Virus record (IMG/VR): IMGVR_UViG_3300029969_000011
Source of the DNA: a virus
Taxonomy: Duplodnaviria > Heunggongvirae > Uroviricota > Caudoviricetes
Length of the DNA stretch: 64,000 bases
Reading direction: 5' to 3' (one strand)
Position 1 is the first letter of the stretch, and every line of letters begins with the position of its first letter. Positions 28,682 to 64,000 of this stretch are shown in pieces. The notes beneath the pieces were generated by a model. The model worked only from the letters and a program-made list of their open reading frames with translations, was not told the DNA's origin and did not search any database. The position numbers and the translations under genes are program-made.

Positions 28682-28683
28682 AT

Positions 28684-39458: not shown

Positions 39459-40610
39459 TATTCATCGCTCCATAGAATTGCTGGAGATAATCTTCTGCTT
39501 TCTTATCAATTATGTAGAAATCAGCGCCATGCTTCTTTGGCAAGAATGTTGGCCAATCCCACCAAAAAACTCCAGCGAAGTATGGGTCGTCTTTGAATAC
39601 TTCCATACAAGACATATAGAAATTCAACTGTTCATCTTCATCATATGAGAGGCTTTCTGTAAAGTCCCAAGGATGAGCAGAAGCATTCATTACTGAGCGG
39701 CATCCTACTTCCATAAAAATAAATTGTTTGCCGCGGTCCTTCGCAATAGCATCAAGACGATAACGAATTTCCCACCATCTTTTTACAAGAGAGTCGTAGC
39801 TATTATCTACTGGTCCATCGAGGTACTCTGCACCGACTGGATAATAAGCAGAAGTGCCAAGATAATCACAAAGCTCAAACCATTGCTGGTCATCTTCATG
39901 GTCATGATTAGTGTTGTAAACAATTTTACCTTTATAAACACGACGGACTTCTTTAATTATATATTCCCAGTCATACTTACGGTGTTCAGTGCCAAGCATT
40001 TCACAGCCGATACATAGCATTTCTGCTCCACACTCTTGTGCTATTTCTGCGTAGTTGAGGATAAAGTTTTTATAGCTTTCAAACCAAGGGCCCCAATAAG
40101 CATTTAGGTCGTCCATATTGAGGTCTGGGAAGCCGATATGGGCTCTCCAAACATTATCTCTTGAATGTACCATAGGTTTTAAACAAACTTTAACCCCACG
40201 TTTATGCGCCGCCCTGACAAATTCTTTAATATCGCCTTCCGTTGGCGTTGCCAAGTGGTCTGCATAAATTCGAGTTGAATGATATGTGTCTTGATAGTTT
40301 ACTATTGTTAAGCAAACCCAATTATTATTAAGCTTATACATACGCTCCTGAGATTCTATTCCCTCAGCAGATTTAATTTCGCCTCTATTTGCGAAGTATC
40401 CATAAGTCATACCCCACATCTTCTCATTTTTATTGACTAGCGGCACAGGAGTCTTTGCTGTAGGGAAGGGTTCCCAAGGAAGTGCCGCCGAGATAAAAGG
40501 TGCACCGTCTGAATATCCGATATTAGGCCCACCGATATATGATGTTAATCCAGTCGCTCCATCGGTTCCATAGAACTAAGGAGGATTTGGATATATCATT
40601 TCTGTACTCA
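39451..40610 (-). CDS. TIM-barrel glycoside hydrolase with one in-frame TAG
   Basis: ORF 39451..40446 (GTG start in track) extends in frame to ATG 40608-40610 (GGGAGGG RBS) across a single TAG at about 40573; sequence features suggest a glycoside hydrolase. Confidence 0.45.
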
Positions 40611-40703
40611 TTTGCTATATCCCTCCCAAAAAATTTCACTATTTAAATAAGGTATCATACCTTATATTATAATATTAACATAAATTTTGAAAAAAGTCAA
40701 ATA

Positions 40704-41807
40704 TTAAACTGGTTCGTTGTATATAAATTCTGTTAATGAATTGCCATTATAAATAACTTCTGTCATTTGATTTCCGTCATAATAAAATGGAACACCAGTT
40801 GGAGGTGGTGGCGGATTTTCTGGTATATCAAGCATAACTGGAATATACGGGAATCCGTTATTTCTGTTCGGGTCAATGTGCCAATCTGTTGTTGCAGCTG
40901 AGTCAGTGCTGATTATGAAACCTTTGCTGTCAAGGTCGCTTTTGGACTTCATTTCTATTGTAGTTGCGCCAATTGTGCCTGTAGGTAATGTACCGCTGTA
41001 TTTATCAGTATTAACTAAGACGGAACTCATTTGTCCATAGTCCAAACGGAATCCGCCGGAAATATCGGCATTTATAACAGTCTTTTGAAAAGTAGTAATA
41101 TAAGAAAATCCAGCTATACCAGATACGTTACCTTCAATATAACAATAGTAAAAAGCACCATATAACTCATAATCATTGTTTTCATAGGTTGCACGAATAT
41201 TACAATATCTAATTCCAGCTTGCCAGTTCACTCCATTTGTAATCGAGCCGTCACCATTAAATGTTAGATTAAAACTACATACATCGATATATCCTAACAT
41301 ATATGTAACGTCAATTATAGCATTATATTCTTGACCAACAGAATATTTCTAAGCTGCTTCAAGACTACCTAAAAAACGACAATACCTTATAAAAGTTCCA
41401 CTACCAGAAGTTTGTGCTGAAGCCAATAATGCCACCGAAGCTCTCTATGAAGTATTTCCAGTCATATGTGCTGCAACACCATTAGAATCGACTATGAAAT
41501 CAATGAAATCAAGATATTCAACTCGACCACTGGCTTCATGTCCAGAAATTATAAATCCATAGTAGCTATAAGTGCCTGAAGTATTAGTAACTTTGGCATT
41601 TTTTATCTACCAGCCATTACCGTTGATAAATCCACGCAGCGGTATGTTATGCACTTCTCCATCTGTGTAGTAGTCACGCATATCAAATACGCCGCCACCC
41701 TCTGGTAATTCAGTATACTTATTATCTGCTGTGGTGCATTGTAGAAATTCTTCCCAAGTCGTAGGCTTGTAAGGGTCTGCAGATGTGCCGCTGCCCGTTA
41801 TCGCCAT
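40704..41807 (-). CDS. tail-associated structural protein with in-frame TAG codons
   Basis: Frame-2 ORFs 40704..41300 and 41607..41807 joined across TAGs; ATG 41805-41807 with GGAGGTGG RBS overlapping the TAA of the upstream fibre gene (TAATG). Confidence 0.45.
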
Positions 41808-44800
41808 TAATTTCCACCTCCATCGACAAAGTACATAATACCAGGTTCAGTTGCTTCAGAAGCAGACTAAACAACTTGAATTGGAATTTGAGTTAATAAT
41901 GCTTTGAGTGCTTCAAGCTATTTGAAACTAAATGATATTTCTTCATTAGTATTTGGATTACTTAAAGTAATACCACTTTCACCGCCTACCACTTCTGCTT
42001 TAATTCTAATACCATTATATAATCTAAATTCTGAATCATCAGTAATTTCTACAATAGGATTATTAGCATAGCTATTCAAGTGAGCATTACTATTATAGTA
42101 ATATCTATATACTATTGTAATAGAATCGTTAGAATTTAAAATAATACTCTCATACTGGTCAACAATCTATCCACTTAAGAAAGTTTCAAAATCAGCATAG
42201 TCAGCACCTGCTTCAAACTGTTTAATAAATTCATATTTATCAGTTAAATCATAAGTCTCAGTAGGAGTAAAAGTATAGCTCAAATGAGAATATGCTCCTT
42301 GGCTCCAACCTTCTCTAAGTACACAGTTAACAGGTCCGTATGCCTGAATAATTGGAGACTAATCCCAAGTCTCAGTACCAACTCTATCTGCTGTTTGAAT
42401 TGGACGATACCATTCTTTACCTAAATGTTGTGCCGCGCCCTAATATACAGAAGTTGTTGCTACTTTGTATCTTGGATGTTCTGCCGCATCATAGGTTCCT
42501 GTTTCTGCATTAGAGAAATCATAAGCTCCTACATTATAAGGTTTAGAAGAACTCTGATTTAAGAAGGTTTGAATATCTTCTGGTAAATCAGCATAAGGAG
42601 TATTAGGATAATTAAGTTTGTAATCAGTAGTATTATTTACAGTATTTTTAACTAAATAACTGTCGTATTCTGCAATAAAATTCTTTACCTTATAATAATA
42701 GTATCCATATCTTTGCTGATAATAAGTAACTGTACAATTAGTTCCAGCAACAACTCGGTCACATTTAAAAGCATTTCTAAAGAATGCTTGTACTTTACTA
42801 TTATTAAAGAAAGTGCTTGCGCTGGTTGATATATATGAATCAATATAAACTGTATATTCAGAAGAAACTAAATCTTTAACATTTTTAACTTCAAGTGACT
42901 CAATGTACTCATATAAGCTAACTTCAGACCAAGAAGTGTAAGCATTTTTTAATACTATCTGATAATTACTATTATCTTCTCCTCCTACTATATTACGGAC
43001 TCCCTTCTTAATGCCTGCTTCCGCACCGCTCATATTAGAAGAGCCTATATATTTATAAATATAATCCTTTTTATCAGTAACAGTATGAGTTTTTGTAATT
43101 GTTATATTAGTAATATCCAAATAATATGAACCTAAATAATAACGATATGTTGTAGAACTACCAGAATAACGTGATAATTGAGCATCTGATTTAAGGGTAA
43201 GAGCAAAATTATTTCCGTATCCAAAAGTATCTCTTATCCAGTCTTTAAATTCTTGTGACTATACTAATGTACTTTCCGTATAATAAGTATTAGAATTAAA
43301 ATACTAAGTTGTATTCCAGTTAATTATTTTAACATTATTAATTGTTAAAGTTTCTGTATATTTTATTGGAAGTTTTGTTTTAGATGTTCCAGTAAATCTA
43401 TTCCAAGTGTAATCATCATTATGAGGGTCGCCATTTGGTAGAGTAGTTGCATTTTTTAATTCAGTCGCAAATTGAGTTTCAATATCAGAAGTTGACATAT
43501 TGCTTAAATCAGTATCAACAACAATTTCGCCCTAAACAGAAATTTCCTTAGTTGTTTCATACATTTTTGGATAATGCTCATATTTAGTTCTACTATACTT
43601 TTCAGCTACAGGATTGACTTCGCTATTTCTTAAAATTACAGTACCGCTCCAAGACTCTAAATGAGTATTGCCGTCAATCTAAATAAAAGAATCATTACCT
43701 TCAAATATTCCCTTAAATCTATCCCATTGACAAATAATCTCACTATGTTTTGGTTCTACTGTTAAACCAAAAGCATACTTAGGGTCAAATTTAATTGCTG
43801 TAGTTCCACTTGGTTCAAAAAAGATAGAAGTCTCTGCAGAACTATCTGGACCAAATCGGAAATATGTACTACTTCCGTCATTAGGAACAATGTCTCCAAT
43901 AAGTTTAGAATTTCCTCCAATTCCATATTTAATTTGAGTTGTACTATTTCCACCACAAGAAGCTACAATACCAATAGTAGAACTATCTCTTGTTGCTAAT
44001 TGCATACCCAATCTACCTGATTCTGAAGAACAGATATGCATACTAACAGGTCCTTCATAAGCAACTAAAGGATAACCTATATACTTTTTCATTATATTTA
44101 AATCATCAAACTTAGTATTTATACTACAATGAGGATGGTCATAATCAAAAGTTCCAATCTAACTATGTTCAATACAGTTAGCTCTTGTACTATAATCTAC
44201 CCAACTACCATTAAAGAAAATATTTGAACTACCATCCCATCCATCATGGTCTTTTCCATTAGTAATGGCACCACTACCAAAAACCATCTGTCCTCTATCG
44301 ACAGAAACACAAGCAGGAAATTCTTCAGTACCTCTCATTCTTACCATAGACCCTGGATGAATATAAACTTGGGTTCTGTAACCTTCCTATAATTTAATTC
44401 CATGATTAGTATCGTGATATCCATTAGAATACTGACCACCATTAATATGAATATCAGCATTACCAGATAAAATTGCTGTCGCATTATTTCTCATTTGTAA
44501 AGTAGCTCTTTCATAAATAGAAACTGTTGCTCCGTCATGAATTTGGAGTATAGGAGAATTATCATTATCTCTGCCACTAAAAGGATTAATATACTTTCTA
44601 ATATCTTCTCTGTCGGGATGAGCCTATCCAAGCCAATAATTAGGTCCTGGATTAGCATACATATCAATTAAACAGTTACCTCTCATTGAAATAGCCGGAG
44701 TGCTACGAGGGTCTGCTCCGCCAAGCATTTCAATTTTTGCAGTTCCTTTAATTTTAATAGTAGGGCTTGTCAAAGTTTCTTCAAAGTCTTCTCCGCCCCA

Positions 44801-45358
44801 CCATTTTATACCACTATATACAGTTTCTTTTGTGCCTATTTCAATTTTTGAGTCTCCATAAATTTTAGCTATAGCAGAATCTGCACTGCTAAAACCATTT
44901 TTTAAATAGGTAATTGGATAATTAAACACGCCCTAAGTTGAGGCAGGTTTTATTGTACCAAAAGCGGTTTCAAATGGAGGTCCTTCAATCATTCCAATTC
45001 CGAAATAAGTTGGTGAAGGAGTTACTCCACCTGTCACAGGAGTTATATTATTATCTTTCCAAAATGGCATACTATAAAGATTACAGTCATTTCCTTTTGC
45101 CCATTCTTTAGGTTCAACATTTCCAGTTCCAGTAAGTAACTGAGAGTAGCTTGCCTTAATCGGAGGAACATCTGCTCCGAGTGGATAAAACCGCTCAGTT
45201 TCAATGTCATAGCGATAAGGGATATTTGTTTCTTCGACTATATATAAATGGTTCTCTTTCTTATCGGTTAAATCGAAAAGGTCTTCATAGGCATAGACAG
45301 TAGTTACGTCATCTTCTGCTGCACCGAAAGGAATCCCATTACGAAATATAATTCCCAT
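41807..45358 (-). CDS. large tail fibre / receptor-binding protein (about 1183 codons) with many in-frame TAG codons
   Basis: Six frame-1 ORF fragments (42440..43120 to 44933..45358) separated only by TAG; hand translation of 41807-42440 shows only TAG interruptions ending at TAA 41807-41809; N-terminus MGIIFRNGIPFGAAEDD paralogous to the gene at 47565. Confidence 0.5.
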
Positions 45359-45435
45359 TTATTATGACCTCCTATCATAGTGTGCCGCCCCTCAGATTTT
45401 TAGAAGGGCGGCGCATTTAATTTATATTATTCTCT

Positions 45436-47565
45436 TTAAGTTTGTGGATGAATTATATTATATAAAGCCTATAAATCTGCCATACTAAAAGTAACGTCAG
45501 TAGTACCATCGCTAAATGTAAATTCAACCTCTGATGTTCCCTATTCAGCTTTAATCGTTGCGCCATCACGAAGACGAAGTTCTGACTCACCATACATTTC
45601 AAATACAGGAGCATGAGTAGATGTAGCTGAAGCAAGTCTTGGAATATCATTTGTAAATTTATATCTAATATGAACGATATAACTACTATTATTACTTTCA
45701 TTATTTATAGTATATGATATTAAAGTTCTATTATATGTAGCAAGTTCATCTAAAAAGTCTTGATATTTAGTAGAAGCCTCAAAATCTGATTTTGACATTG
45801 TTGTATTATTTGTAAAACTATATTCTCCAGTATACTCTCTTGAAATATCTGCCGCCATTGCAAAGTTAGATTCATCATACATCTAAAAGACAGGTTCAGA
45901 ATCATTCTATACAAATACAGTCCAATCTCTTCCTAAATGTGAATTGCTTGGGTGGCCACCATAAATGATATTTTCATTTGCAGGAGTTGTGGTTCTCATT
46001 ATAAATGAGCCACCATGTAATTCGCTATGGAAACTTCCTGATGTTTGAATATAAGCATTATCTCCTTCAATTAAAGCATCTAATGCACTCCATTGGCAAG
46101 TTATTTCAGTCGCTACATTTGGAGTAAAAGATATAGCACAGCTACCCTTTGGTGAGTAATTAATACTTGAAACACCATTTGGACAATAGTTAAAAACTGT
46201 ATTACTACTGCCGGCTGGTTCAATGTTGTAAGCTGCGACAGCATTTTTGCCGTGACACATATTAAACATTACTATTGCGCCGCTATCTGTACCAATCTTA
46301 ATATCTTCATAACCATATCCACTCCAGTCAATGGATGTATAAGCACCGCCACTTGGAGCTATTTTTGCAGCTAAATATCCGCTATCACCAATTGATAAAT
46401 GAGTTTTACCCATGATATTTAATGTAGGCTAAAAAAGTTTTGGCATTAAAGTAGAAGGAAGACTACCTGGGCTAACACTGGAATTATAAATAAAATTACG
46501 ATGATTATATAATCTATAGGAAAAACTAATTATACGACTACTTAAAGTGGCACCAAAATCATGGTCACTTGAATTATAATCATAAATTCCATTATGAATA
46601 CCATGCTATGCAGTTATTAAAAGTTTACCAGGACCGTCTCCACTGCTACTACTTTCAAGAGCAATCATTGGTCCATATTCGCCGCCATAGGTACCTGTTG
46701 ACCTTGTCATTCTAATCATTGCGCCCGGTTCCATATATAAACCAGTTCTTATTTGACCAGAATTAATCTGTTTACCATTAAGGTCAGTTAATGCTCCACC
46801 ACGGATAACAACATCTGCATTACCAGCCATTTCAAGACCCGCACTGTCTGCCATTTTAATAATAGAAGCGCCTTCCATTATAACCGTACTTGAATTTGAC
46901 ATATGGAAATATGGAAAAATTTCTGCATCACTTAAACGAGTATAGTTACTACCATAAGGAGAGTAACCTTGATAGGCATAATAAGCAACTTCAGACAGAC
47001 ATTTGTCACCAGAGCTATGCCTTGGTAAAGCGCGAGTATAGGTCTTCTAATTATTATGGTCCTAATAGGCATACATTTCAAAAATACCGGCTCCAAGCAT
47101 TGAGATGACAGGAGAACTTCCTTCTCTTTTCATCATCTATAGTAATGGAGAACCATACATAAAGAACTTGGCATTATTTTTATTTTCGCCCCAATATAAT
47201 TCTGAAACATCAGTTGTACTTCCTATTTCTATTGCTGTCATAGAAGTTTTCAATTTTGCAATGGATGAAACAGCGCCAGGACTTCCTATTGTCTCTGCAA
47301 ACCAAAAGCTATGAGGCTTTACTCCACCTTCTCCGTCACCTATTACTATTTCATTCTCATCTGCCGCGATATTAAAAGTTGCAGACAAAGGAACAAACTC
47401 TCTGTTCTCAACATCCCAATAATACTCAGTATTATCAGAAGTAGTAACATATAAATGATTTGTTTCTTTATTTGGCAGATTAGTTAAATCCTCAAAATTA
47501 GTTACAATAGTAACATCTTCTTTCGCCGCCCCAAAAGGTCTACCATTTCTAAATATAACTCCCAT
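45436..47565 (-). CDS. tail fibre paralog (about 709 codons) with in-frame TAG codons
   Basis: Frame-0 ORFs 45541..45882, 45907..46413, 46606..46902, 47137..47565 joined across TAGs (verified at 45541, 45883 and 45907); ends at TAA 45436-45438; GAGGAGG RBS; N-terminus MGVIFRNGRPFGAAKED. Confidence 0.5.
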
Positions 47566-47958
47566 TAAGTATCAACCTCCTCTTCTGCATCAGGGTCGAA
47601 TTCGGGGTGGTCTTCCTAATAAGCTGCGACAAGTTTATCATACTTAGTCATTAATTCATTTACTTTGTTAAGTAAATATTCAACAGCATCAGAAAACTCT
47701 ATATCTGTAACAAAGAATATTTGGTCTTTGTACTAATTCATAAAGTCTGGCTGTTCAGCGAGAGCAACATAATCATCCCAGGTTATGTCCTACTCATGCA
47801 TTTTACGCTGTTCATTTGCCATTTCCTTTGCACCTCCGTACAATTTGTTTTCTACATAATAAAGTAGAGATTTGAGTCGAAACGTCTAATCCTTTACTTA
47901 TTGATATTATAGCATAAAAATAGAGAGAAGTCAAGTGTTGACTTCTCTCTTTTTAATA

Positions 47959-50900
47959 TTAGCTTATATGCTTATCTATTCTTGTAATTGTAAGAGCTTC
48001 TGTTGGTATATTTGTTGCTTTCCAAGCTGAAGATTGACGTCCAGAGCTCTCATTTGGCCATAAGAATGTATATGGAGAATTAGCAATTTTCTTTCCATAG
48101 AACATTGGATAATGGAAGTCACAATCTCCATTTGGATTGTCCCAATTATGTCCATTATGGTCTACGTTGCCTTTTCCAGTAGGCATATCTGCCGCCGCAC
48201 CAATGATAATATAACCAATAGGAGGACGATTAAATATCCACTCTCCATTACTTACCCAGCAATTATCTATATTATGAGCTAAATATCTTGCTTCTGTTGA
48301 ACTTGTTGCAACGTCTTTGGCTATTTCTCCCCAGTTGAATAATATAAAAGCAGTATGACTTAAATCAGCATAAACATCTTTTTCATAGCTATCATTTTGA
48401 GCTTCATAGTCATAACAAATTGGTATAATAAATACCTAACGAGCATGACGTACATTAGAAACAAATGCGTCTCCATAATCGGCAATATCAGTCATTACAC
48501 AAGGTTCTAAAGCCGGATTTACTCTATTTGGATACTAAGCTAATGCAAATGCATTACCATAAATTAATCCAATTGACTCAATAAAAGCATTAATTTTAGC
48601 CATACCTCTTACTTCATTATTTACATCTATTAAGTCTGTCATATAAGAAGTAGCAACTCTTCCACTTGATGCATCGCCATTTATATTAATAAAATTAGTG
48701 AATAATCCTTGAGTATACCAACCACCAGTTACAGTATAAGATTGTCCATCCCAAGTATAAGTTTGGGCTGCTACTGCGTTAAGAGGAATAGTTCCATCCT
48801 TTACCCCTGAACTTAAAGTTAATCTTCTTGTTCCTTTTAATCCTCCATATCCACTATTTACAGTATCTATAAGATAACGGAATTGACTTTCATATCCTAC
48901 ACTTGGGTCTTGGTTAGCAGCTGAAGACCAGCACATTCCAGTATTATTGATTCCTTGTGAAATTCTGCCTTGAATCAATCCATTTGGACGTGCGCCACCA
49001 GAAGTAACATATGTCATTGAGCCACTACTACCAGTTTCTCCAGCTATTGTAAGATAAGAATAGCAGCCAAGACCTGAACGGACAATTGTTGTGCTTGCAC
49101 TTTCACTAACTTCTTTCAGCTCTCCTGTACAAGGTGCTGTTAAAGACTCTGTTGGTTTAAGCATATTTGAAAGCTAAATTAAATCTCTATATTTTTCTCC
49201 TGATTTATCTGTTAAACTTGGCTATAAATATTGAATACCTATTCCAGTTTTTCTTCCATAAACAGTATCCTTAAGAACAAAGCTTGGAGAATAACGATAT
49301 GTCGCTCTTGAGCAACATTCAAGATGCAAATTTAATGGCTAATAATTAGTATAATCACTAACACCGCCAGGCAATGAACCATCAATACCTTTAACATATG
49401 CCTTATCTGTATTAACTTTAGATGGGTCAAAATTAATCATTATTAATTCTAATTCTGCAACAGAATTATTAGGCATAGCAAGAACCTTAGTCGCATCATA
49501 CTTATAAGTAGCTCTACCGCTACTTTTGTTAGAGATAATTATTTCTGCCAAACTAAATTCATTAGAACCAGCTTCTCTATAATAAGCATAATAAGTTGGA
49601 TTATACATAATTATATTTAAATCTTTAATAAATTCAAAATCTGCTCCATTTGCTACCATATTATCTAATGTTTTCAAATACCATCCATCTCTTGTAGAAC
49701 CAGTATTTGCACTTGAAGCATCTACAGAAATATTATAGAAAAATGGATGTACCATTTTCTTTCCCTATATCTGTGATTTTGAAGTTGGGTTATCAGCAAC
49801 ATCAAAAGCAACTGTTGATTGATATAAATCCCATAAATTTAAAGATGTTGTACTATTATTTTGGCCGCCATTTGGATATGCGCCAGTTTTATTCCAAGAA
49901 GAACAAAATGACTCCCAATCAGTATAGTCCAATTCTCTACTATAATTACTTAAATTATTATAAATTGGTACTTTAATTTGTCTTGCTCCACTACCTTTCT
50001 AAATATTAACATAAAGATTTGTTAAAGTATATCCCTGGCACATTGAAGCAAATTTATCTCCAACAAGTTTTACCTAAGTCTGTCCATCAAGACCAAGTAA
50101 CAAATTAATCAAATTTACTTCACTGGTAATTTTATTAAGTTGTTTAATAATAGTATTGATAGCATCTACAATACCATCATCTCTCCAAACAGCCTCAACT
50201 AAAGCGTCGCAAACCTATCCAAGAACCCAAAAATTCTTATCTAAATCTTCTACTTCCACTCTACGAGAGTAGCGAGGCATAAGTAAATTCAAATAACTAC
50301 TGAGTTTAGATAGTCTATTTGAAGGGAAAATACCTGTCTCTTTAACATATGCAATAAAATCTTCTTTAGTTACATATGCTTTTTGAGTTTCATTTCTTTT
50401 ATTAATCTAATCTACAATAACCAAAATTTTTGTAGATAGTCTTGCGTCTATTAAAATTCCACCATCATAATGGACGGTATCCGCTTTATTTACAAAGTCA
50501 GTAGCACATTCAGTAAGAGTCTTTCCCTAAGCATTAAAATAACAAGTATATTCTTCTCTTTCAGGCTATGGAGTACCACTTTCTGGATAATATGATGTAT
50601 CAAAACAATCTAAGTATAATGTTCCATTTGTTCTCTTAACAATAGGAATGGACTAAGAGTGATAATTTATTGAACCATCTACATAATCTAATAAGACATC
50701 ATGTCTTCCTTCATTTTCATCCCATATGCGGTCAACTACAGTAGCTATTGAATTGTTCCACTTAACAGGGTCTAATTCTGTAATTTCCTGTATATCTCCA
50801 TATTCAAAAACTCTATTGAAAAATCCAACTGGCTAAGTAGCAGAACCTGTTGAATAAACAGCATACATAGCGAGACTAATTCTTGCATCATCTATACCAA

Positions 50901-51321
50901 GAACGCCATCATTACCGAAATCAAGTAAATCATAAAGCTGTTCGAGAGTAAGATTACCAACAAGGTATTCATCTTCAGGAATGTCGCCACCTTCTTCAAG
51001 AATTTTATTAGTAAAGTCCATATTCTTGATATGCATCGGAATCTCATCGTGGCGTGCTTCTCTATACTCAAGTCCAAGTTTATTAATTAAAGGTCTTGGA
51101 TTCAAATAGTCTGGTAGTGTTCCTGTTGCATCAGCCTACAAAAGAGTTCTTCTATACTAATCATCGAAAAGAGCTCTACTACCACCTATAGTATTATCAC
51201 CATTTTTAGTTTCGTCTATGTATAAATTAGTAGTAAGCTAATCAATTATACTATCCCAATCTATCATACCATTCGCATCTTTTTCAAGAAGGGTAGGCTC
51301 TAATATAATATCTTTACTCAT
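47959..51321 (-). CDS. large virion/tail protein (about 1120 codons) with in-frame TAG codons
   Basis: Frame-0 fragments 47959..48186, 48535..49164, 49339..49755, 50833..51105 plus upstream extension to ATG 51319-51321 (GGAGGAGG RBS); TAGs verified at 51136, 51157, 51238 and 48535; ends TAA 47959. Confidence 0.4.
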
Positions 51322-51683
51322 CTTCTTCCTCCTCCTTCTTTCCTATCACCCTTTCCCAAATCTTCTTTAGGGAATCAAAGCCATTCATACTAATGAACGC
51401 AATAATAAAACCATTAAGAACACTTGCCGCGATAGTAGCAAAACTAATAACAACGCCAGGTGCAAGGAATGGAATTATAACAGCAATGATTAGAGCAATA
51501 ATTAATGTTAATATCTAAGTAGGGAATTTCTTAGGTACTACATTTTTCATAACTTCAACTATAATCATAGTCAAAAATGCCATAGCACTTATTGAGCCTA
51601 AAGTTCCTAAACCTAAAGCTGCAAAAATACTCTCCATTGTTATCCCTCCTTTAAATTAAGGGGAGGTTTAACTCTCCCCTTTA

Positions 51684-53080: not shown

Positions 53081-55717
53081 TTAATAAGTTCTGAACTGTA
53101 GCTTATAAATTGAAGGTGTTGCATTATTTTGGCTTGAAGATGTTTCAATACCAACGAGATACTTACCAGAGTTTGGAAGTTCTCCGAGCATTATACCCTC
53201 AATATCATTTTGACTTGCTGTTCCATTATGAACAAAAGACATTGTGTATACTCCATTCTCTGCACCATTCATATGGTCGAGGAGCATTGAAATATACTAA
53301 GCGGTTGTTTTATTCTAATCATATGGGATAAGATGAACTTTAACTTCTGTACTTGTCCAGTCTCCTTCTGAAAGAGCACAGGTTGAAATAACACGGTCTG
53401 AAGCAAAGTCAAGAACACGATTAATGAACATTGCTTTTACAGGAGTTAAAAAGTTCTAATTGTTATCTCTTGCTTGCGGCTGGAAATTAAGACCAGAATG
53501 GAAACCAGTCGCACCATTGATAAGGCACATCTTACCATTATTAGTAGTGTCTAAAATTATCCACTCGTAAGAATCAACGTAGACATTATCCCAATAATAC
53601 TGAATAACATGAAAGTCATTGTTTGGGTCAATAACATAAGTATATTGACCCAAAGTATCAAGCATTTCCTATACGGTTAAATCTCCTGACATAAGTGTCT
53701 CAGGGATTTGAGAAATGACTTTAATCTGAGCACCGCCCTGCGGCATATGTAAAATTCCACTCATTTAAATCACTCCTTAATAATATGTAATTTCAAGCAT
53801 TATATCTCTATTACCTGTAATTACATCTTCTACTCTTACGCAACTATTCCATTCATTATCGTAATGAAGAGTAAAGTTTGGAGCACCTTCTGGACCAGAT
53901 GTAGTATCTGTAATTGAAGTTTTATTTGTAGTACCATTACTAATCTATAACCAGAAATAACCTGTTTTAATAACAAGACCAGGGCTATTACGACTAATTA
54001 CAGTATAACGAATTAACATATAATTTTTAGTAGTATCTACAACAACATCTACTTTGTCATGACCACAAATAGTAATAACTTTTCCATCATTACCTGCTCT
54101 TGCAAAAGTTGCGCCAACAACACTTGCATCGGTAATCATTGGTCGATAAACTCTATCTATCGCACCAGCATCATGAGTAACTGAAAATACTAAATTTAAA
54201 TTAGTCGGTCCAGTAAGGGTAAATGTTGTTTCACCATTATAGTTATCACAAATCTTTGTGCCGCTGTCTCGGTTATAAAGATTTAAAGCATATGTGGTAC
54301 TTGAACCACCAGTACATCCTGATAATTTGTAAGTTCCTGCTGGTAAAGCTTCTTTAATTTCAATTGATGCGCTACCAGAAGAACCATACTATTGACCATT
54401 TGTTACAACGTAGACGCTTCCATCCTAACGTTTATAAACAGTATATCCAGTTGCTTCAGTAACAGTACCTAATGTAATCAAGTTAGAAGAAATATCTGCA
54501 TTATCACATTTACTCTGTAGCGCCGCAACATCTGCTGCACTTGCTTTATTATTAAGAGCTGCTGTAATAACCTTATTCTGAACAGGATTTTCAGAAGCTA
54601 AACTTAAAGTATCATCAACTGTAATTACAGGAGTTACAGAAGTATATGAACCTTCAACTACAAGTAACATAGGAATATCAACTGAAGGCTGTTCACCATA
54701 TGCCTTAAATACGATTGAACCATTATTGATTGCCTGAATAATCATTTTAGCACCAAGCAAACCATTAAGCTGGTTCTCAGTAATTCCTGCCGCCGGACCA
54801 ACATCAATAAAGTTTGTTGTATTGATTGCCGCATTGCTATATGTATAATTATATGAACCGTCCTGCTGCTGTACCCAGTTAGCTGCTGAAAGTACGAAGC
54901 TATACTGCTCACTTCTGATTGTTACATCACCCGCATCAACATCTGCGCCCTCACTAAATAAAACAATTAAATGTTTATTGGCGTTAATTGTTGTACCAGT
55001 AATACTAATACCATCAGCACCAGGAGCACCGTCATCACCGTCTGTACCTGCAGGACCAGTCTGACCGTCAGCACCATTAGTTACTGTGAATGTTGATGTC
55101 GTGTTATTACTATAAGTAATAGTGTATGTATCTACAAGGCCAGTTGTATCAGTCTTTGTAACAGAAGTAATACCTCTACCGGCAGGACCTGTTGCACCAG
55201 TTGCACCATTAGTACCATTTATACCGTTTGTAACTGTAAATGTTGAACTTGAGCCTGATGTGTATGTGATAGTATATGTATCAACATTATCAACTGTAGC
55301 TGTTTTTGAAATAGAAGCAATACCTCTACCAGCAGGACCTGTTGCACCAGTTGCACCAATAAGTGAAGCTAAGAAATCTGCTTCTGAACCTTCATTACCT
55401 GCATCAAGCCAAATTTCATATGCAGAAGCACCGTCTTCTCCATCCTGACCATCTGTACCATCTTGTCCATTAGTACCGTCAGTACCATTAGTACCATCAG
55501 CACCATTAGTAACTGTGAATGTATCTGAGTTACCATTTGTATATGTAATTGTATATGTATCAACAAGACCAGAAGTACTGCTCTTTGTAATTGATGAAAT
55601 ACCATTACCGGCAGGACCTTGTAAGTTACCTGCATCAATAAATCCATTTACTGCCGCGGGGTCAGAACTGTTGGTGTAAACCCAAAGATGTCCGTTAATT
55701 ACATAACAATCACCCAT
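53081..55717 (-). CDS. collagen-like / β-repeat tail fibre (C-terminal portion), with in-frame TAGs
   Basis: Frame-1 ORFs 54425..55717 (GTDGTNGQDGTDGQDGEDG collagen-like tract; repeated [SG]xVDTYTIxYTNG...TFTVTNG modules), 53945..54139, 53456..53665, 53081..53287; 54140-54424 checked open except TAG; ends TAA 53081. Confidence 0.45.
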
Positions 55718-55762
55718 CTGCTGACCGCTTGAAGGAAGATTACTTGAACTTGAAAGCTCTCC

Positions 55763-56419
55763 CTTAATGATAACTGATGTACCATCTGCGCCCTTTACAA
55801 CACCTGCATCAAGTGATTGGTTATTGCTAAGAGTGATGATAAGGTGTCCAGAAGCATTAACTGTTGCTCCAGTAATTGAAACACCATCAGTACCGTTTGT
55901 ACCATTAATACCATTAGTACCATTAGTACCGTTTGTTACAGTAAATGTTGTTGTGTTTGTATCGGTAAATGTAATTGTATAGGTATCTACATTACCTGAT
56001 GTACTTGTCTTTTCGATTGAAGCGATACCTACGCCATTTGTTCCATTAGTACCATTTGTTCCGTTTGTACCATTGGTACCATTTGTAACAGTGAAAGTAG
56101 CGTGTCCACCATTTGTATAGTTAATGGTGTATGTATCAACATTACCCTCTGAAACAGGACCAGTAATAGAAGAAATACCATTACCAGTTGCACCCGTTGC
56201 ACCAGTCTGACCAGTAGAACCTTTAGAACCATTGGTTACTTCATAAGTTGAGGGAGAACCGGTTGTATAGTTTATTTGGTATGTATCAGTTGCACCTTCA
56301 ATACCTGGCTAATCGCCGCCTGTACTTGAAAGCCAAACTATAGATTCAATACCTTTTCCGTCTTTACCAGCTGGACCTTGGCCGCCACCGCCACCATTAA
56401 CGAAAGGATTAAAACTCAT
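55763..56419 (-). CDS. collagen-like repeat fibre protein (N-terminal portion or separate paralog)
   Basis: ATG 56417-56419 with GGGAGGTGAG RBS; MSFNPFVNGGGGGQGPAGKDGKG...(NGT)n with the same VDTYTI.YTNG...TFTVTNG repeats; one TAG; in-frame TAA at 55763-55765. Confidence 0.4.
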
Positions 56420-56435
56420 TTATCTCACCTCCCAT

Positions 56436-56718
56436 TAATATATGAACCATATTTTTTTAGTACATCCTGTTTTAAAAGTGACTGAATGTATCATCATATG
56501 GTTTGCTCCATCATAAGGGGTAATGAATTGTCCAGTAGATGGAACAATATTTGGAACGCCGTTAATTGTCAACTCTTCTCCGGCTGACTCTTCGAAGGCA
56601 ATAAACTGAATTTTGCACTATTGACCTGGAGGAACAGTTCCAGTCAATTCCTTAAAAAGTAAAGGAACAATATTCTCGTCTGCCTAAGCAGTAATTTCAA
56701 CACAAGCATACTGTGCCA
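56436..56718 (-). CDS. hypothetical protein with two in-frame TAGs
   Basis: ATG 56716-56718 overlapping the upstream TAA (TAATG), GGAGGGG RBS; MAQYACVEITA-TAG-ADENIVPLLFKELTGTVPPGQ-TAG-CKIQF... Confidence 0.35.
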
Positions 56719-56967
56719 TTAGATTTCCCCTCCTAATTCGTTAAAAATTTCTTTTATTTTATCTAAATCATTCTCATCATCAAATACAACAGTTATTACA
56801 TCTCCCATTTTATACTAAGCACTTAATATGCCAATGAGAGATTTACCGTTAATAACTCTTTCACCAGACTGAATATGTATTGATGAATGAAGTTGACTTA
56901 AATCCCAGTTTAACATAGTAGCTGTTCTTGCTACAATATCTCTATTTAATTTATATTGAAGTTTCAT
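56719..56967 (-). CDS. HPr/Crh-like phosphocarrier-fold protein with one in-frame TAG
   Basis: ATG 56965-56967 with AAAGGAGGAA RBS; ...LNRDIVARTATML...IHIQSGERVINGKSLIGILSA-TAG-YKMGDVITVVFDDENDLDKIKEIFNELGG aligns to HPr (GLHARPA...KGKSVNLKSIMGVMSLG...ITI.AeG.De..A); His15 replaced, Ser46 retained. Confidence 0.4.
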
Positions 56968-57046
56968 TCTCAATTCCTCCTTTAATATAATAACATTCTG
57001 TACAACAATAGTCAACATTTCGATTACAATAGCAATTAAATTGTTG

Positions 57047-58044: not shown

Positions 58045-58540
58045 TATAAAAATTTTTATAGTAAATGGATAGGGCGGCTCAGGTAAAACTACTTTTGAGA
58101 ATTTTGTAGCTTAGGCTTGTGAAGGCGATGTCGCCGCCGTCTCAATGATTGATTATACAAAGCAATGTGCCGCCAAGCTTGGTTGGAATGGAGCCAAAGA
58201 AGATAAGGACAGACGTTTTCTTAGTAATTTAAAAGATGCTCTTACAGCTTGGGATGACAGCCCATTCCTTACCACTTGTGCTATGGCTCATATGGCAATT
58301 AAAGAAGGTTGTGAAATTGTCTTTATCGACGCAAGGGAGCCTGATGATATTGACAGATTAAAGGAAGCATTTAGTTGCCTTACAGTCCTTGTAAAAAGAG
58401 GAGGTCAGAAAGACTATGGAAATCATGCTGATGATGACGTTTTTAATTATAATTATGACATCGTTATTGAGAATAATGGAACGCTCGATGAACTTCGTGC
58501 TTCGGCAGAAGAGTTCGTCAAAATGACGAAAGGAGAATAA
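58037..58540 (+). CDS. P-loop NTPase with two in-frame TAGs
   Basis: ATG 58037 after AAAGGAGGAAG RBS; MFDIKIFIVNG-TAG-GGSGKTTFENFVA-TAG-ACEG... is in frame with ORF 58145..58540; TAG-to-Q completes Walker A GQGGSGKT. Confidence 0.45.
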
Positions 58541-58541
58541 T

Positions 58542-59337: not shown

Positions 59338-59395
59338 GTCAAGAGTAAAATCTTGACTTTTCTTTTTATTTGTGCTATAATTATAATATAAATGA
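59338..59395 (+). promoter_or_regulatory. fused intrinsic terminator + σ70 promoter cassette (plus-strand version)
   Basis: gtcaagag-taaaa-tcttgac + T-run; TTGACT (in hairpin 3' arm)-17 bp-TATAAT; AAAGGAG RBS before 59413. Confidence 0.55.
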
Positions 59396-59412
59396 GAAAG
59401 GAGTAAAGCTTA

Positions 59413-59718
59413 ATGAGCTGTATTAATTGTGAATATGCAAGAAGAGCAGAAAATAAAGAATATGTAGGTTGCTGCTTACTTGTAAAACTTTCTTATGCGC
59501 ATCCTGCGAGATTTGCTTATGAAGGCGACCAGTTATTTGACTTCTATGAAAAAGACAGTATATGTACTGGCTGGGTAAATTTAAGTTATAGACCAGATGA
59601 AACAGGTAAAGAAGGAATGATAACAAACTATATTCCTTGTTTTAAGAAAGATGACGTTTGTAAACATTTTAAAGAAAAAGGATATACAGGAGGATTATTA
59701 GATGAGTATGATTATTGA
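59413..59718 (+). CDS. Cys-rich hypothetical protein
   Basis: 101 aa; CINCEY...GCC. Confidence 0.4.
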   Translation: MSCINCEYARRAENKEYVGCCLLVKLSYAHPARFAYEGDQLFDFYEKDSICTGWVNLSYRPDETGKEGMITNYIPCFKKDDVCKHFKEKGYTGGLLDEYDY

Positions 59719-60832
59719 TGGTATCGACTTTGAAAATCTTGAGGCGGAGAAGTATTGGTCTTTCCCCAAGACATACAAGGGTGATAAGCAGGCGGACACC
59801 AAGAATATGATTATGTCTGGTAATTATATTGGTGCAGAGAAAAAGGACGGACATTATGCTCGTTTCATTAAGGATATGGACGGCAATATGAGACTTCAGG
59901 GAAGAAGCGAGAGCGTAAATGGCGGCTATCTTAATAAGATAGAATGGGTTCCTCAGTGTCAGGATTTCTTCAACAGCCTTCCTAACGGAACAGTTCTTCT
60001 TGGAGAACTTTATTTCCCTACACAGCGCGGTTCTCGTAAGGTTACTACAATTCTTGGTTGTTTAAAGGATAAAGCTCTTGAACGTCAGGAGAAGGGCGAA
60101 AAGCTTCATTACTACGTTTTTGATATATGGGCATATAATGGTAAGTCTCTTCTTGATACTCCATTCCAGACAAGAATTGAGCAGTATCTTGATTATGAAA
60201 TACTTGACCTTTTTAAGGGCGAAGATTATGTAGAAGATGCTTGCTACTATGAAGGACAGGAGCTCTGGGATAACCTCGGTAAGATTCTCAATGAAGGCGG
60301 CGAGGGAGTAGTAATTACTCAGAAAACTGCTAAGGCGGCACCAGGTAAGCGTACTGCTCGTAAGACATTAAAGGTTAAAATGGAAATTGAGCAGACTATT
60401 GATGCTTTCCTTGACGGAAATTACAAGCAACCAACTCGTCTTTATAATGGTAAAGAAATAATGACTTGGCCCTATTGGGAGAACGAAAAGACTATGGAAA
60501 AGTCTAATATTAACCGTTACAAGGATTACAATGACGGACTTCCTTGGGTTCCTGTTACAAAGCCATATTACTATGGTTGGGCTTCTGCCGTATCAATTTC
60601 TGTTATGAAGGACGGTAAGCCATTCCATATTGGCTGGATAAGCGGTATTACAGATGAAATGAAGGAAGGTATTATCAAGACTCCTGATAAGTATATCGGT
60701 AACGTTTTTGAAATAACCTGTATGGAAGTTGAGAAAATCGACGGCAATTATTCACTTCGTCACGGAAAGTTCGTTGCGCCGCGCCCCGATAAAAATGCTA
60801 AGGATTGCACCTTCGACCAAATAGACTCTTAA
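59702..60832 (+). CDS. ATP-dependent DNA ligase
   Basis: 376 aa; motif I AEKKDGHYARF (KxDG), motif III LLGELYFP, motif IV EGGEGVVITQK, motif V LKVKME. Confidence 0.65.
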   Translation: MSMIIDGIDFENLEAEKYWSFPKTYKGDKQADTKNMIMSGNYIGAEKKDGHYARFIKDMDGNMRLQGRSESVNGGYLNKIEWVPQCQDFFNSLPNGTVLLGELYFPTQRGSRKVTTILGCLKDKALERQEKGEKLHYYVFDIWAYNGKSLLDTPFQTRIEQYLDYEILDLFKGEDYVEDACYYEGQELWDNLGKILNEGGEGVVITQKTAKAAPGKRTARKTLKVKMEIEQTIDAFLDGNYKQPTRLYNGKEIMTWPYWENEKTMEKSNINRYKDYNDGLPWVPVTKPYYYGWASAVSISVMKDGKPFHIGWISGITDEMKEGIIKTPDKYIGNVFEITCMEVEKIDGNYSLRHGKFVAPRPDKNAKDCTFDQIDS

Positions 60833-60919
60833 AAATCTATAAGAAGTTGAGTACGAAATCACTTAATCTTTAGAGGAGAGACTTTATGTCTCTCTATTTT
60901 TTTTAAGAGGTGAGTGGTT

Positions 60920-61765
60920 ATGAAAGAGTATTTTCTAACTCCGATAGAAATTAAGGAGCCTCCACGTCATACACAGATTCATCCTCGTTGTTATACTTGT
61001 AAGAAATTCCCTGTTTGTAATCTTAGAGAAGATTACTTAAAAACTGCATTACTTATGCAGAGAATACTTGGTGACCCATAGGACGATAGAGAATTGGGTT
61101 ACTACAATAGCTCTTGGGGCAGAGTGCCTGGATACAAGGGCTATAATTTTGAAAACCCAGGCGAATACTTCCCAGAGACTATTACAACAGAAAAGAATAC
61201 TGGTACTTTCAAAGAAGCTAAGTACCGCAACAAAGATATAGTTCAGTTCATTTATGATATTGAAGGTTACTTTGTTTTATTCAATGCTGTATATGATTAG
61301 GACGACGGAGTATTTGACTTCAGCGAAGGAAGGGAAATCTATTACGGATTAAAGTATACTCTTAGCGATGACTCTATGGTAGAGCTTGCCGTTGGTCTTG
61401 AATCTTGGCGTCTCGAAATGATAGCACACGAAGAGGATTCAAAAGATTTGGAGGTCATCAACACAACTTATTTCTCCGCAAAATTAGAATGTGATTTCTA
61501 TGAATGGGAGAAAGGTTTGACAGAAGAAGAAGGAATCAAGCGTATGATTGCTTTCTTCCCTAACGGTATTCCTTGTAAGGATGGTACTTATTACCATTTA
61601 GCTACTTTCCACATTGAACCACATAAGGTTCCTTGCTATCACCCAGAAAACGGAAAAGTTGCATTTGCTCCTATGCCTTATCCTGTATTTATTCCTCCAA
61701 GATGTAAAAAAGATTTACCTCGCCCACCAAGAAGAAGAGGCGACATTTGTGAATCAGATTTCTAA
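60920..61765 (+). CDS. hypothetical protein with two in-frame TAGs
   Basis: ATG 60920; ORFs 61094..61300 and 61376..61765 are in frame with it (offsets 174 and 456 nt), separated by TAG at about 61079 and about 61298. Confidence 0.4.
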
Positions 61766-61794
61766 AGGGGAACAAAAGTTAATTAACTTGTTCC

Positions 61795-62159
61795 GCCGCG
61801 GCGGGATACATTTTGAGCGAGAAGTGTCTTTTGAGGATTTACACGGAAAAGGACAAACGTTACTTCGTTTTGATTTTGCTTTATATCGTAATAATAAAAT
61901 ATGTTGTCTGGTAGAATATGACGGAATACAACATTTTCAATATACTCCACATTTCCATAAAAATCTTGCTGGTTTTAAGAAGTAGCAAGAATGGGATAGA
62001 AGAAAAAATAGTTATTGCTTAATGCATAAAATTCCTCTTATTCGAGTTCCATATTGGGATTTAGAAGATTTAACCCTAAAGAAGGTTTTATCTGACCCCT
62101 CTTATTAGGTTAAAAGCAAATATCATATAGATGATTTAAAACGACAAGGGGTGAGAAAA
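61795..62159 (+). CDS. Vsr/DUF559-like endonuclease-fold protein with two in-frame TAGs (start uncertain)
   Basis: Latter half of ORF 61614..61985 (GIHFEREVSF...LVEYDGIQHF) continues across TAG 61986 into ...KIPLIRVPYWDLEDL... to TGA about 62157. Confidence 0.3.
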
Positions 62160-62632
62160 TGAGCGAAGTATTAATAGCAGCTATTTTTGCTGGATTAGGT
62201 GGTTTAGTAGGCGCAGTCGGAAAAGTTATTGTTGATGTAATTCGAGCCAAGCACGAGCCTGATTAGGCAGACTTGGAATTAAAAGACGAACTACAGCGTG
62301 AAAAAGAAAAGAACGACACGGCAATCGCAACTTTCACAGACTTCGGGAAAGACATCAAGAAATGTGTGGAAGATATGAAAACGGAAATGAATTAGAAATT
62401 TGAGGATATGAATGAAAAGATTACTGATTACAGAGAAGAAACTCGTAATATAAATAAATCTGAATTAAGACATTCAATTACTCAAATTTATTATGAACGC
62501 AAAGATGCAAAAACCCTTGACCTCAGAACAAAAGATGACCTTTGTTCTTTATATGAAGCGTATAGTTCAATCGGTGGCAATTCATTTGCACACGAGCTGT
62601 ATGAAGAAATGATGAGTTGGGACGTCAAATAA
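62159..62632 (+). CDS. membrane-anchored coiled-coil protein with two in-frame TAGs
   Basis: ATG 62159 overlapping the upstream TGA; N-terminal TM VLIAAIFAGLGGLVGAVG; in frame (249 nt) with ORF 62408..62632. Confidence 0.4.
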
Positions 62633-62754
62633 TAAAAGAGTGGCCACGGCGCCACTCTTTTTTTATACTTTAACCTGATTTTGATAAAATCATTTCTAAT
62701 TTATTAGATGAACTTGTTGTCAATTTTACTTGTTATTACACTCCAAGTGAATAA

Positions 62755-62790
62755 TTTGACTTTTACAAATTTTTGGAGTATAATATTTAT
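62755..62790 (+). promoter_or_regulatory. σ70 consensus promoter (TTGACT-17-TATAAT)
   Basis: ttgacttttacaaatttttggagtataat upstream of nrdH-like gene. Confidence 0.5.
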
Positions 62791-62821
62791 AGAATAAATT
62801 AGAAAAGGAGTGAGTGCAAGT

Positions 62822-63040
62822 ATGGAAAGTATTACATTGTATTCAACAGGATGCCCAAAGTGTAATGTTCTTGAAAAGAAATTAACTGCCGCCGGCATTG
62901 AGTATGAGGTCGTAACTGACGAGAAAGTCATTGCAGATGTATGCGATACTATTGGTACAGATTTTCTTCCTATTTTGGAAGTAAATGGTGAATATTATGA
63001 TTTTGCTGCGGCAATAACATGGGTAGGTGAAAGAAGCTAA
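62822..63040 (+). CDS. nrdH: NrdH-like glutaredoxin (thioredoxin fold, CPKC)
   Basis: LYSTGCPKCNVLEKKL redox motif; immediately upstream of nrdD. Confidence 0.55.
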   Translation: MESITLYSTGCPKCNVLEKKLTAAGIEYEVVTDEKVIADVCDTIGTDFLPILEVNGEYYDFAAAITWVGERS

Positions 63041-64000
63041 TGCAGATAAATATTAAAGTTTCAAAGAATTTCACAACATAGTGGAATAAATTACAGAATG
63101 AGTTCGGCACTCAACTTGCAGACTTAAATGGTTTTGGGGATGAATAGCTTTCTTACGGTGACTTCATTGATAATTTCGTTGATGTCCCCGTTGTTGCAGA
63201 CAGCTCAATTGACTCAAACAGTAATGTAAGAAGAAAAGATATGGTAACTCTCCTTTCTGAAATGCCTAAGCCTCACAGAAAGCTTATGTCATTCCAGAAG
63301 ATTTATTACGAAATGCAGAAGGAATATGGTTTTAAGGCTGCTAATGAGTGGTTGCGCCGCGATTGGATGGGAGAAATCTATATGCACGATGCAGACACAG
63401 CAACATTCAAGTCCTATTGTTTTGCTTATGATTTAAAGGATTTGGCAGAAAAAGGACTATTCTTCCTTGGAGATACCTTCAATCCTAAGCCTCCTAAGCA
63501 TTTGACTACTTTTGTTGATTTCGTAAAGGAATATATTAACTTTGCAAGCAATAGAACTTCAGGAGCCGTTGGCTTACCAAACCTTATTCCTTATATGTAT
63601 TACTTCTGGAAGCAGGATTGGAACTGTGCTTATCTTGGTATGCAACAGTTTGAAGACTATGCAAAACAGAATATTCAGAGATTTATTTATGCTGTTAACC
63701 AGCCTTGCGTAAGAGATGGTCAGCAGTCAGCATTTACAAATACTTCTGTATTTGATAGAGAATATCTTATGGCGCTTTTCGGCGGTTCAGAGTTCCCAAA
63801 TGGTGATATGATGGTTGACCACATTGAAGGAATTATGGATTTCCAAAAGATGTATATGGAAGTTATGGCAGACGTTCGTCACGAGAATATGTTCACTTTC
63901 CCTGTTTCTACCATGTCTATGGTAAGAAAGAATGGTAAGTTCCTTGACGAAGAATTTGCAGAATGGGCTATCAAGCATAATATGCAATGGTCTGATAGTA
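63039..64000 (+). CDS. nrdD: anaerobic ribonucleoside-triphosphate reductase NrdD (5' portion, runs off window), with in-frame TAGs
   Basis: ATG 63039; ...WMGEIYMHDADTATF...FNPKPPKHLTTFVDF resembles E. coli NrdD HERGDIHYHDLDYSPF...EPPKSISTA; two TAGs near the N-terminus; partner NrdG-like activase at 17901..18455. Confidence 0.55.

Follow-up and report, generated by a model that had tools for sequence, protein, structure and literature searches.

In gut phages that use genetic code 15, described by Borges et al. (10.1101/2021.08.26.457843; later Nat Microbiol 2022), TAG is read as glutamine with the help of suppressor tRNAs, and this recoding favors late and lysis genes and is patchy within clades. 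Metaproteomics has confirmed the same TAG-to-Gln reassignment in crAss-like phages (Peters et al. 2022, PMC9523058), and an uncultivated gut phage, phAss-1 ('Phassvirus'), carries TAG in 41 open reading frames (ORFs) along with three suppressor tRNA genes (Babkin et al. 2023, PMC10607447). Here we evaluated a stretch of 64,000 nt (hereafter the window) of the Caudoviricetes record IMGVR_UViG_3300029969_000011 from IMG/VR, which covers about one third of a roughly 150-190 kb genome, about two thirds lying outside it, and for which an original prediction had proposed genome-wide TAG-to-sense recoding served by two phage-encoded tRNAs with the anticodon CUA (here SupA and SupB). We are highly confident that the window derives from a tailed phage of ~150-190 kb, probably infecting a Bacillota host, that uses code 15 with TAG as glutamine, two tRNA-Gln-derived suppressors and a proposed late-gene switch.

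Set beside the described systems, the large, Firmicutes-infecting clades Jade, Sapphire and Agate of Borges et al. likewise read TAG as Gln, encode phage tRNA(CUA) and concentrate recoding in structural and lysis genes, and they likewise mix code-11 and code-15 members at genome sizes of 150-210 kb. They differ in that an RF2/synthetase 'code change module' is described for Borges phages and none was seen in the window, and in that the window encodes two different, putatively Gln-type suppressors in tandem, 3 nt apart. The crAss-like and Lak phages share the reassignment (PMC9523058) but infect Bacteroidota, whereas the window phage looks Bacillota-associated (Amidase_2, ligase neighbours, SupA arm) and has no DNA-level similarity to them. 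phAss-1 is a remote relative only; its genome is 136 kb, its gene content is different and its DNA ligase is a distant homolog of the window's (25.6% identity). The concept of TAG-to-Gln recoding is already known and the window phage adds one more code-15 phage, in which the least ordinary features are the tandem of different, putatively Gln-type suppressors with A73, the fast turnover of the second suppressor slot and relatives that show TAG/CAG exchange directly.

Making TAG, TGA or TAA sense in turn, we assessed stop-to-stop ORFs over 40-64 kb and found that ORFs of 1183, 1128, 880 and 711 aa appear only when TAG is sense, the standard-code maximum being 627 aa, such that the comparison of translation tables 15 and 11 suggested with the original prediction favors table 15. 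The TGA-sense and TAA-sense codes were rejected, as ORFs gained no length under either. Codons were counted in a curated set of 69 genes (16,300 codons), which hold 81 in-frame TAG codons and no in-frame TAA or TGA, the occurrence of which inside the TAG-interrupted frames had been named beforehand as grounds for abandoning the claim, whereas all three stop triplets are abundant in the two off-frames of the same genes. A partial nrdD, which leaves the window at its end and was missed by the ORF lister until an RNase H look-up exposed it, adds 2 more TAG. The 69 genes terminate in TAA (54) or TGA (15) and none requires a TAG terminator, versus 3 of 24 genes in the standard-code relative L153, at binomial probabilities of 1e-4 for 0/69 and 0.02 for at most 3/69. 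Neither the position of TAG along genes, which is uniform, nor its +4 base context, which is the same as that of CAA and CAG, revealed any bias.

Homology also spans the TAG codons, as seen for Amidase_2, phrog_15001, GH113, a Walker A motif and nrdD. In the endolysin, the Pfam Amidase_2 match covers residues 40-150 across TAG codons 62 and 88, in line with the earlier claim of a TAG inside the catalytic core, and the phrog_15001 match covers residues 3-350 across four TAGs. The genes previously delimited as TAG-interrupted fared similarly well: the three large fibre-like genes between 41807 and 51321, the endolysin gene and the P-loop NTPase gene match TAG-sense ORFs exactly (Table 1), those placed at 31756-32089 and 33644-34285 correspond to TAG-sense ORFs at 31757-32089 and 33254-34285, the TAG expected near 40573 in a glycoside hydrolase lies at codon 12 of a GH113 gene, and the TAG-carrying nrdD was recovered.

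Over positions 40447-64000 the window has no megablast match among GenBank phages, and a comparison of DNA ligases (tblastn) places it nearest, among GenBank phages, to phages of Bacillus, Brevibacillus and Alicyclobacillus and to phAss-1, at 25-33% identity. Public assemblies and IMG/VR provided many syntenic relatives as 150-190 kb contigs (numbered here with an L), among which L001, L004, L155, L276-L279 and L281 are recoded in the late block of fibre, holin and endolysin genes (39.4-57.0 kb in the window), at 23-106 TAG per 20 kb, and L153, L280 and L282-L285 use the standard code. Lysis and structural genes carry TAG in every recoded relative, identical TAG positions are kept in independent assemblies of relatives (the holin TAG, for example, in L001 and L004), and public gene calls for the lineage already use code 15. 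The standard-code relative L153 (149.8 kb, GC 29%) has no in-frame TAG in the 24 genes counted. The ORF lengths, the lack of in-frame TAA or TGA, the TAG-spanning homology and the recurrence of this pattern in relatives together show that the window phage reads TAG as sense.

Evaluating which amino acid TAG stands for, we aligned the endolysin with 120 full-length homologs (MAFFT), as the original prediction had suggested, and found TAG codons 62, 88 and 221 at columns holding Gln in 120, 118 and 120 of the 120 homologs, respectively. Conserved-Gln columns number only 5 of 411 in this alignment, 3 of which carry TAG (hypergeometric p = 8.6e-6) and the remaining 2 of which are spelled CAA or CAG in the window, and each TAG in a conserved endolysin column falls on a Gln column. 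Some database homologs had themselves been called under code 15 (their loci hold in-frame TAG, with no table-11 translation matching the query), and because database proteins are partly code-15 calls, we therefore checked the DNA of the standard-code relative L153, whose endolysin has CAA at all three positions.

Orthologs 84-99% identical to the window genes told the same, with CAG and CAA the commonest partners of TAG aside from TAG itself, and with exchange between TAG and CAG/CAA running in both directions between close relatives. The window nrdD shares 99% identity with the 648-aa PF13597 NRDD product of L286 over 320 aa, and within these 320 codons the window's TAG14 is CAG in L286 while the window's CAG19 is TAG in L286; in the AAA_28 NTPase gene, L007 has TAG at window codons 27 (CAA) and 57 (CAG). 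The Walker A motif of the P-loop protein, which resembles dNMP kinases, reads G-TAG-GGSGKT (TAG at 58070-58072), and L004 has CAA at that codon, which agrees with the earlier proposal that TAG-to-Gln restores the motif. With TAG included, Gln-type codons account for 3.1% of codons in the left arm (1-39.4 kb) and the late block alike; without it, their share in the late block drops to 2.0%. Where columns are variable, TAG pairs with a wide range of residues, among them E, K, S and D. As the alignments indicate, TAG is glutamine, equivalent to CAA and CAG.

TAG use is uneven over the window, amounting to 35.8% of Gln-type codons in the late block versus 3.9% in the left arm (Fisher p = 1.4e-19), with an intermediate share in the plus-strand arm (57.1-62.6 kb). 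The claim of TAG-to-sense recoding stands, but 'genome-wide' was too strong, as only 7 of 51 left-arm genes carry TAG and 5 of the 11 left-arm TAGs lie at most 12 codons from a predicted start or stop, such that they may be outside the real gene or be real stops. Most of the recoding instead falls in the fibre/lysis block and the replication arm. Both lysis and structural genes are affected, as had been claimed, since holin and endolysin each carry TAG and all 12 genes of the block do, as expected from the model of Borges et al., which predicts an excess of recoded codons in structural and lysis genes.

The window encodes an array of 19 tRNA genes, called with ARAGORN and the Rfam tRNA covariance model (gathering threshold 29 bits), and the two tRNA(CUA) genes predicted at 23046-23201 are called by both programs (55.4 and 53.4 bits), so that they are no artefact of folding by hand. 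SupB lies downstream of SupA at a distance of 3 nt. Each folds into a canonical cloverleaf that has a 7-bp acceptor stem, a 5-bp anticodon stem and normal D and T loops, and the two are 66% identical. The 3-bp D-stem and variable loop CATTC previously reported as Gln-like features are those of SupB, and the fold agrees; the evidence for Gln is, however, stronger for SupA (23126-23201) than for SupB, the one highlighted earlier. In a scan of one genome for each bacterial species, in which the anticodon could vary, the SupA anticodon arm CAACGGACTnnnACTCCGTC lies in tRNA-Gln in 120 of the 124 bacterial matches listed (UUG 70, CUG 50; matches within the first 120 loci listed), mostly in Bacilli and Clostridia, which identifies SupA by sequence as a tRNA-Gln(CUG) with A in place of G at position 36, i.e., a Gln-type amber suppressor. 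The E. coli amber suppressor supE (glnV/glnX) is likewise a tRNA-Gln whose anticodon changed from CUG to CUA. SupA resembles it in its tRNA-Gln(CUG)-type body, the G-to-A change at position 36 and the retained U1-A72, and differs in being phage-encoded, in having A73 rather than G73 and in that the genome relies on it for dozens of genes, whereas supE is a weak informational suppressor.

SupB is probably Gln-type as well. Across 5,409 E. coli genomes its similarity is to tRNA-Gln genes only (75-77% over nt 8-64, with weak E-values), and among the tRNAs of a bacterial set the isotype closest to it is Gln, a biased vote that lends weak support as this set was gathered with the SupA arm and is Gln-enriched. 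U1-A72, present in both suppressors, is limited to Gln and Asn tRNAs in the bacterial set, in which Trp tRNAs have A1-U72. As for A73, also present in both, tRNA-Gln with this discriminator occurs in metagenome-assembled genomes of Ruminococcus, Oscillospiraceae and Ruminiclostridium.

The tandem pair is identical in L007, a 188.6 kb relative that carries the same array, and the second slot turns over fast. In the near-identical relative L010 (ENA ERZ27264001 k141_57374), SupA is identical and a neighboring 154-aa protein is 100% identical to the window's, and the SupB slot (L010:3539-3626) is occupied by an 88-nt tRNA(CUA) whose variable arm is long and which has U1-A72 and A73, an unusual combination of a class-II body with a Gln-like acceptor end. 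A more distant clade (GC 48%) has a 94-nt class-II tRNA(CUA) that is Ser-like with G73, at L024:9370-9463 and also in L025, L027, L029 and L030 (IMG/VR 3300045988_*, 2832442593_000001), where it follows tRNA-Lys in the slot of the window's tRNA-Ser(GCU). The early regions of L024-L030 have no in-frame TAG (tblastn), and a GH113 scan for late genes did not match these contigs.

Bringing these observations together, we infer a Bacillota host from the Amidase_2 endolysin and the Bacillota-type tRNA-Gln anticodon arm, with A73 pointing more weakly to Oscillospirales. Once transcribed, SupA and SupB would be charged with Gln by the host GlnRS, or by a non-discriminating GluRS together with GatCAB, since GlnRS and GatCAB both use U1-A72. 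A further reason to expect such charging is that amber suppressors are readily glutaminylated, as cited in Borges et al. (10.1101/2021.08.26.457843). The charged suppressors would then out-compete the host release factor RF1 at UAG. Left-arm genes (nucleotide and RNA metabolism, tRNA-array flanks), being nearly TAG-free, would be translatable under the standard code of the host, whereas the late block and some of the replication arm would require the suppressors for full-length products. Since the left arm suits the standard code, complete fibres, holin and endolysin would be made only after suppressors accumulate, such that virion assembly and lysis may depend on the code switch, as in the late-gene timing model of Borges et al.

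Several observations weigh against this scenario. TAG also occurs in the nrdD and dNMP-kinase-like genes, which belong to replication and nucleotide metabolism, and this blurs the early/late split, and the timing of genes is deduced from gene function only. The claim that gene ends are never TAG agrees with the TAA and TGA terminators of the 69 genes, but three left-arm genes (26471-27064, 31757-32089, 20044-20292) have a TAG 5-9 codons before TAA or TGA that may be their true end, and the claim is partly circular because these TAGs could be terminators. The SupB anticodon arm, taken alone, occurs mostly in phage tRNA-Ser(UGA) and tRNA-Trp(CCA) in a scan of viral contigs and is not Gln-specific, while both suppressors have the discriminator A73 and the phage tRNA-Gln(UUG) and most bacterial tRNA-Gln have G73. 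Lastly, no RF2, aminoacyl-tRNA synthetase or anti-RF1 gene is found among the window proteins, two thirds of the genome being outside the window.

The SupB arm also feeds a different reading, which we consider improbable, in which decoding is mixed, with SupA inserting Gln and SupB, or its class-II counterpart in relatives, charged otherwise, such that TAG would be ambiguous. The mere 66% identity of the two suppressors, the likeness of the SupB arm to tRNA-Ser(UGA) and tRNA-Trp(CCA) rather than tRNA-Gln, the 88-nt tRNA(CUA) with its long variable arm in the second slot of L010, and the alignment of TAG with E, K, S, D and other residues at variable positions would all fit, yet every TAG in a conserved column sits at a Gln column and CAG and CAA are the main non-identical partners of TAG in close orthologs. 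SupB itself has the Gln/Asn-specific U1-A72 rather than the A1-U72 of Trp, is class I and hence not a Ser, Leu or Tyr tRNA, and is matched best over its whole body by tRNA-Gln. Still less probable, and in our view very unlikely, is a host that itself reads TAG as sense, which the phage would match with its suppressors as a supplement. Code-matched phage-host pairs do exist for code 25 (10.1101/2021.08.26.457843), but the avoidance of TAG in the left arm (3.9% versus 35.8%) is unexpected for an ordinary host codon, syntenic relatives are on the standard code with TAG-terminated genes, and the phage has suppressors of its own.

That late genes are fragmented under code 11 could also mean that TAG is still a stop, the interrupted genes being pseudogenes, assembly errors or products of rare readthrough, a reading we find scarcely credible when the frames are broken by TAG alone, TAG positions are shared by independent assemblies, essential lysis and structural genes are hit in every recoded relative, and two dedicated suppressor tRNAs are encoded. 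Least credible of all is that TAG encodes pyrrolysine: ARAGORN labels both tRNAs 'tRNA-Pyl', from the CUA anticodon alone, whereas both are canonical cloverleafs to which the general tRNA model gives 53-55 bits, the window proteins scanned contain no PylS or PylBCD domains, and TAG aligns with Gln and not Lys. A pyrrolysine system was rejected given the lack of an atypical pylT structure, the lack of Pyl genes in the window and the placement of TAG at Gln columns.

Retaining glutamine as the meaning of TAG, we also entertain, as an unlikely extension, that the two tandem suppressors are non-redundant and tuned to the Gln charging of a particular host, possibly GluRS/GatCAB in a host that lacks GlnRS, with the suppressor set acting as a determinant of host range or of an arms race. 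Such tuning is suggested by U1-A72 together with A73 being seen, among the tRNAs compared here, only in tRNA-Gln of Ruminococcus and Oscillospiraceae-type Clostridia; if true, some relatives might read TAG as an amino acid other than Gln. More immediately, the contig and its relatives are mis-annotated under table 11, which splits fibres, holin, endolysin and nrdD, and need table 15. With the window, the known code-15 phages gain a Bacillota-associated lineage with genomes of 150-190 kb, one that keeps recoded and standard-code genomes syntenic (L153 versus the window), and these syntenic genomes, with 99% identical genes showing two-way TAG/CAG swaps, form a convenient natural series on stop-codon capture.

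Table 1. Regions, tRNA genes and TAG-carrying genes of the window, with protein families assigned by Pfam and PHROGs searches of the window proteins.
Feature	Position	Strand	TAG codons	Evidence
Left arm (RNA ligase, kinase-phosphatase, ThyX, UvrD, tRNA flanks, others)	1-39.4 kb	-	11 in 7/51 genes; 3.9% of Gln-type codons	
Late block (GH113, fibre-like proteins, holin, endolysin, collagen-like fibre)	39.4-57.0 kb	-	63 in 12/12 genes; 35.8% of Gln-type codons	
Plus-strand arm (dNMP kinase, two unknowns, others)	57.1-62.6 kb	+	7 in 4/6 genes; 17.9% of Gln-type codons	
tRNA array, 19 genes including two suppressors	18844-24573	-		ARAGORN, Rfam
SupB, tRNA(CUA), 77 nt, U1-A72, A73, 3-bp D-stem, variable loop CATTC, CCA encoded	23046-23122	-		ARAGORN; Rfam 55.4 bits
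SupA, tRNA(CUA), 76 nt, U1-A72, A73, CCA encoded	23126-23201	-		ARAGORN; Rfam 53.4 bits
tRNA-Gln(UUG) in array	24500-24573	-		ARAGORN, Rfam
AAA_28 NTPase	26471-27064	-	codon 188 of 197	Pfam
110-aa protein	31757-32089	-	2 (codons 25 and 105)	ORF
Coiled-coil region and GIY-YIG domain protein, 343 aa	33254-34285	-	3, internal	Pfam GIY-YIG 8.8e-10
311-aa secreted or membrane protein	36201-37136	-	1, in Thr/Ser-rich linker	ORF
GH113 glycoside hydrolase	39451-40611	-	1, codon 12 (40576-40578)	Pfam GH113 6.5e-92
367-aa protein	40704-41807	-	3	ORF
Fibre-like protein, 1183 aa	41807-45358	-	13	ORF
Fibre-like protein, 709 aa	45436-47565	-	9	ORF
85-aa protein	47565-47822	-	3, partly conserved in L001 and L004	ORF
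Large structural (fibre-like) protein, 1120 aa	47959-51321	-	17	ORF; no family match
Putative holin, 107-aa membrane protein	51314-51637	-	1 (51515-51517)	phrog_18218 1.8e-13; holin phrog_1299 8.7e-5
Amidase_2 endolysin, 411 aa	51684-52919	-	5 (codons 62, 88, 221, 275, 391)	Pfam 1.7e-11; phrog_15001 3e-79
227-aa protein	53081-53764	-	4; CAG/CAA in L001	ORF, ortholog alignment
Collagen-like tail fibre, 880 aa	53777-56419	-	4	tail-fibre PHROGs, e.g. phrog_3904 2.1e-15
94-aa protein and HPr-like protein	56435-57018	-	2 and 1	ORF; PF00381 on ortholog
P-loop dNMP-kinase-like protein, 167 aa	58037-58540	+	2 (58070-58072, 58112-58114)	phrog_139 3.7e-10
Two proteins of unknown function, 281 aa and 157 aa	60920-62632	+	2 each	ORFs
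nrdD 5' part (anaerobic ribonucleotide reductase)	63040-64000	+	63079 and 63145	PF13597 ortholog in L286

Within the late block, the three genes called fibres in the original prediction stand as TAG-sense ORFs, but their proteins (41807-45358, 45436-47565 and 47959-51321) have no family match, and tail-fibre families are matched by the collagen-like protein at 53777-56419 alone. The 41807-45358 and 45436-47565 proteins share a conserved N-terminus (MGxIFRNGxPFGAA). Fibre-like genes over 41807-51321 are 32-42% identical to those of L001/L004 or have no ortholog, with adjacent genes at 95-99%, and the 47959-51321 protein in particular is 42% identical in L001, with neighbors at about 95%; these genes act as hypervariable cassettes, with a probable role in host range. 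At the head of the late block, the small HPr-like (PTS-HPr) protein (56719-57018) is kept in all relatives. Terminase is not present in the window.

Turning to the left arm, the TAG of the AAA_28 gene (codon 188) has TAC as its L007 counterpart, and the 9-codon tail after it is conserved (DKFATEYYD versus DNFATEYYD), such that read-through of this codon is plausible, although it may instead act as a stop. All three TAGs of the GIY-YIG protein at 33254-34285 are conserved in L007. A Vsr-like nuclease, also named in the original prediction, was not recovered among the window proteins by Pfam or PHROGs, and only GIY-YIG nucleases turned up. Two such GIY-YIG ORFs (34282-34611 and 33254-34285) neighbor thyX (34611-35432), which is 27% identical to the L007 thyX with flanking genes at 93-99%, and the region 33254-35432 looks like a gene replacement tied to a homing endonuclease. 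The gene at 12121-13533 encodes 470 aa with no family match and a Met-rich repetitive C-terminus (…MLPFLMFSD…MLMFSMM…MLPFLMLSD…), and both its TAGs lie close to the N-terminus, where they may precede the true start. Plus-strand ORFs in 1-25 kb resemble antisense noise. Around the tRNA array, RNA repair/maintenance genes (9752-10684, 13517-14939, 16347-17810, 25970-26407 and 27776-28699) encode an RNA ligase, a nucleotidyltransferase with phosphatase, a DUF2828/VWA (Ro-like) protein, NADAR and an AAA_33 kinase with an HD domain, and a 525-aa SPFH/flotillin-family protein is encoded at 7579-9156.

Within the array itself, just upstream of the suppressors, a minus-strand ORF (23343-23612; 89 codons stop-to-stop, no TAG) has a lipoprotein-like signal (MKKAILACLMAGAMAVTFVSC…) and a Thr/Glu-rich tail. 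A long variable arm is typical of bacterial tRNA-Leu, but 5 of the 6 tRNAs with Leu anticodons are only 76-77 nt long and lack it (18844-18919, 19209-19285, 19697-19772, 19921-19997 and 21410-21486). The tRNA model gives the one at 18844-18919 only 33.7 bits, and that at 19697-19772 has an apparent C at position 33, its L007 counterpart having received no anticodon from ARAGORN.

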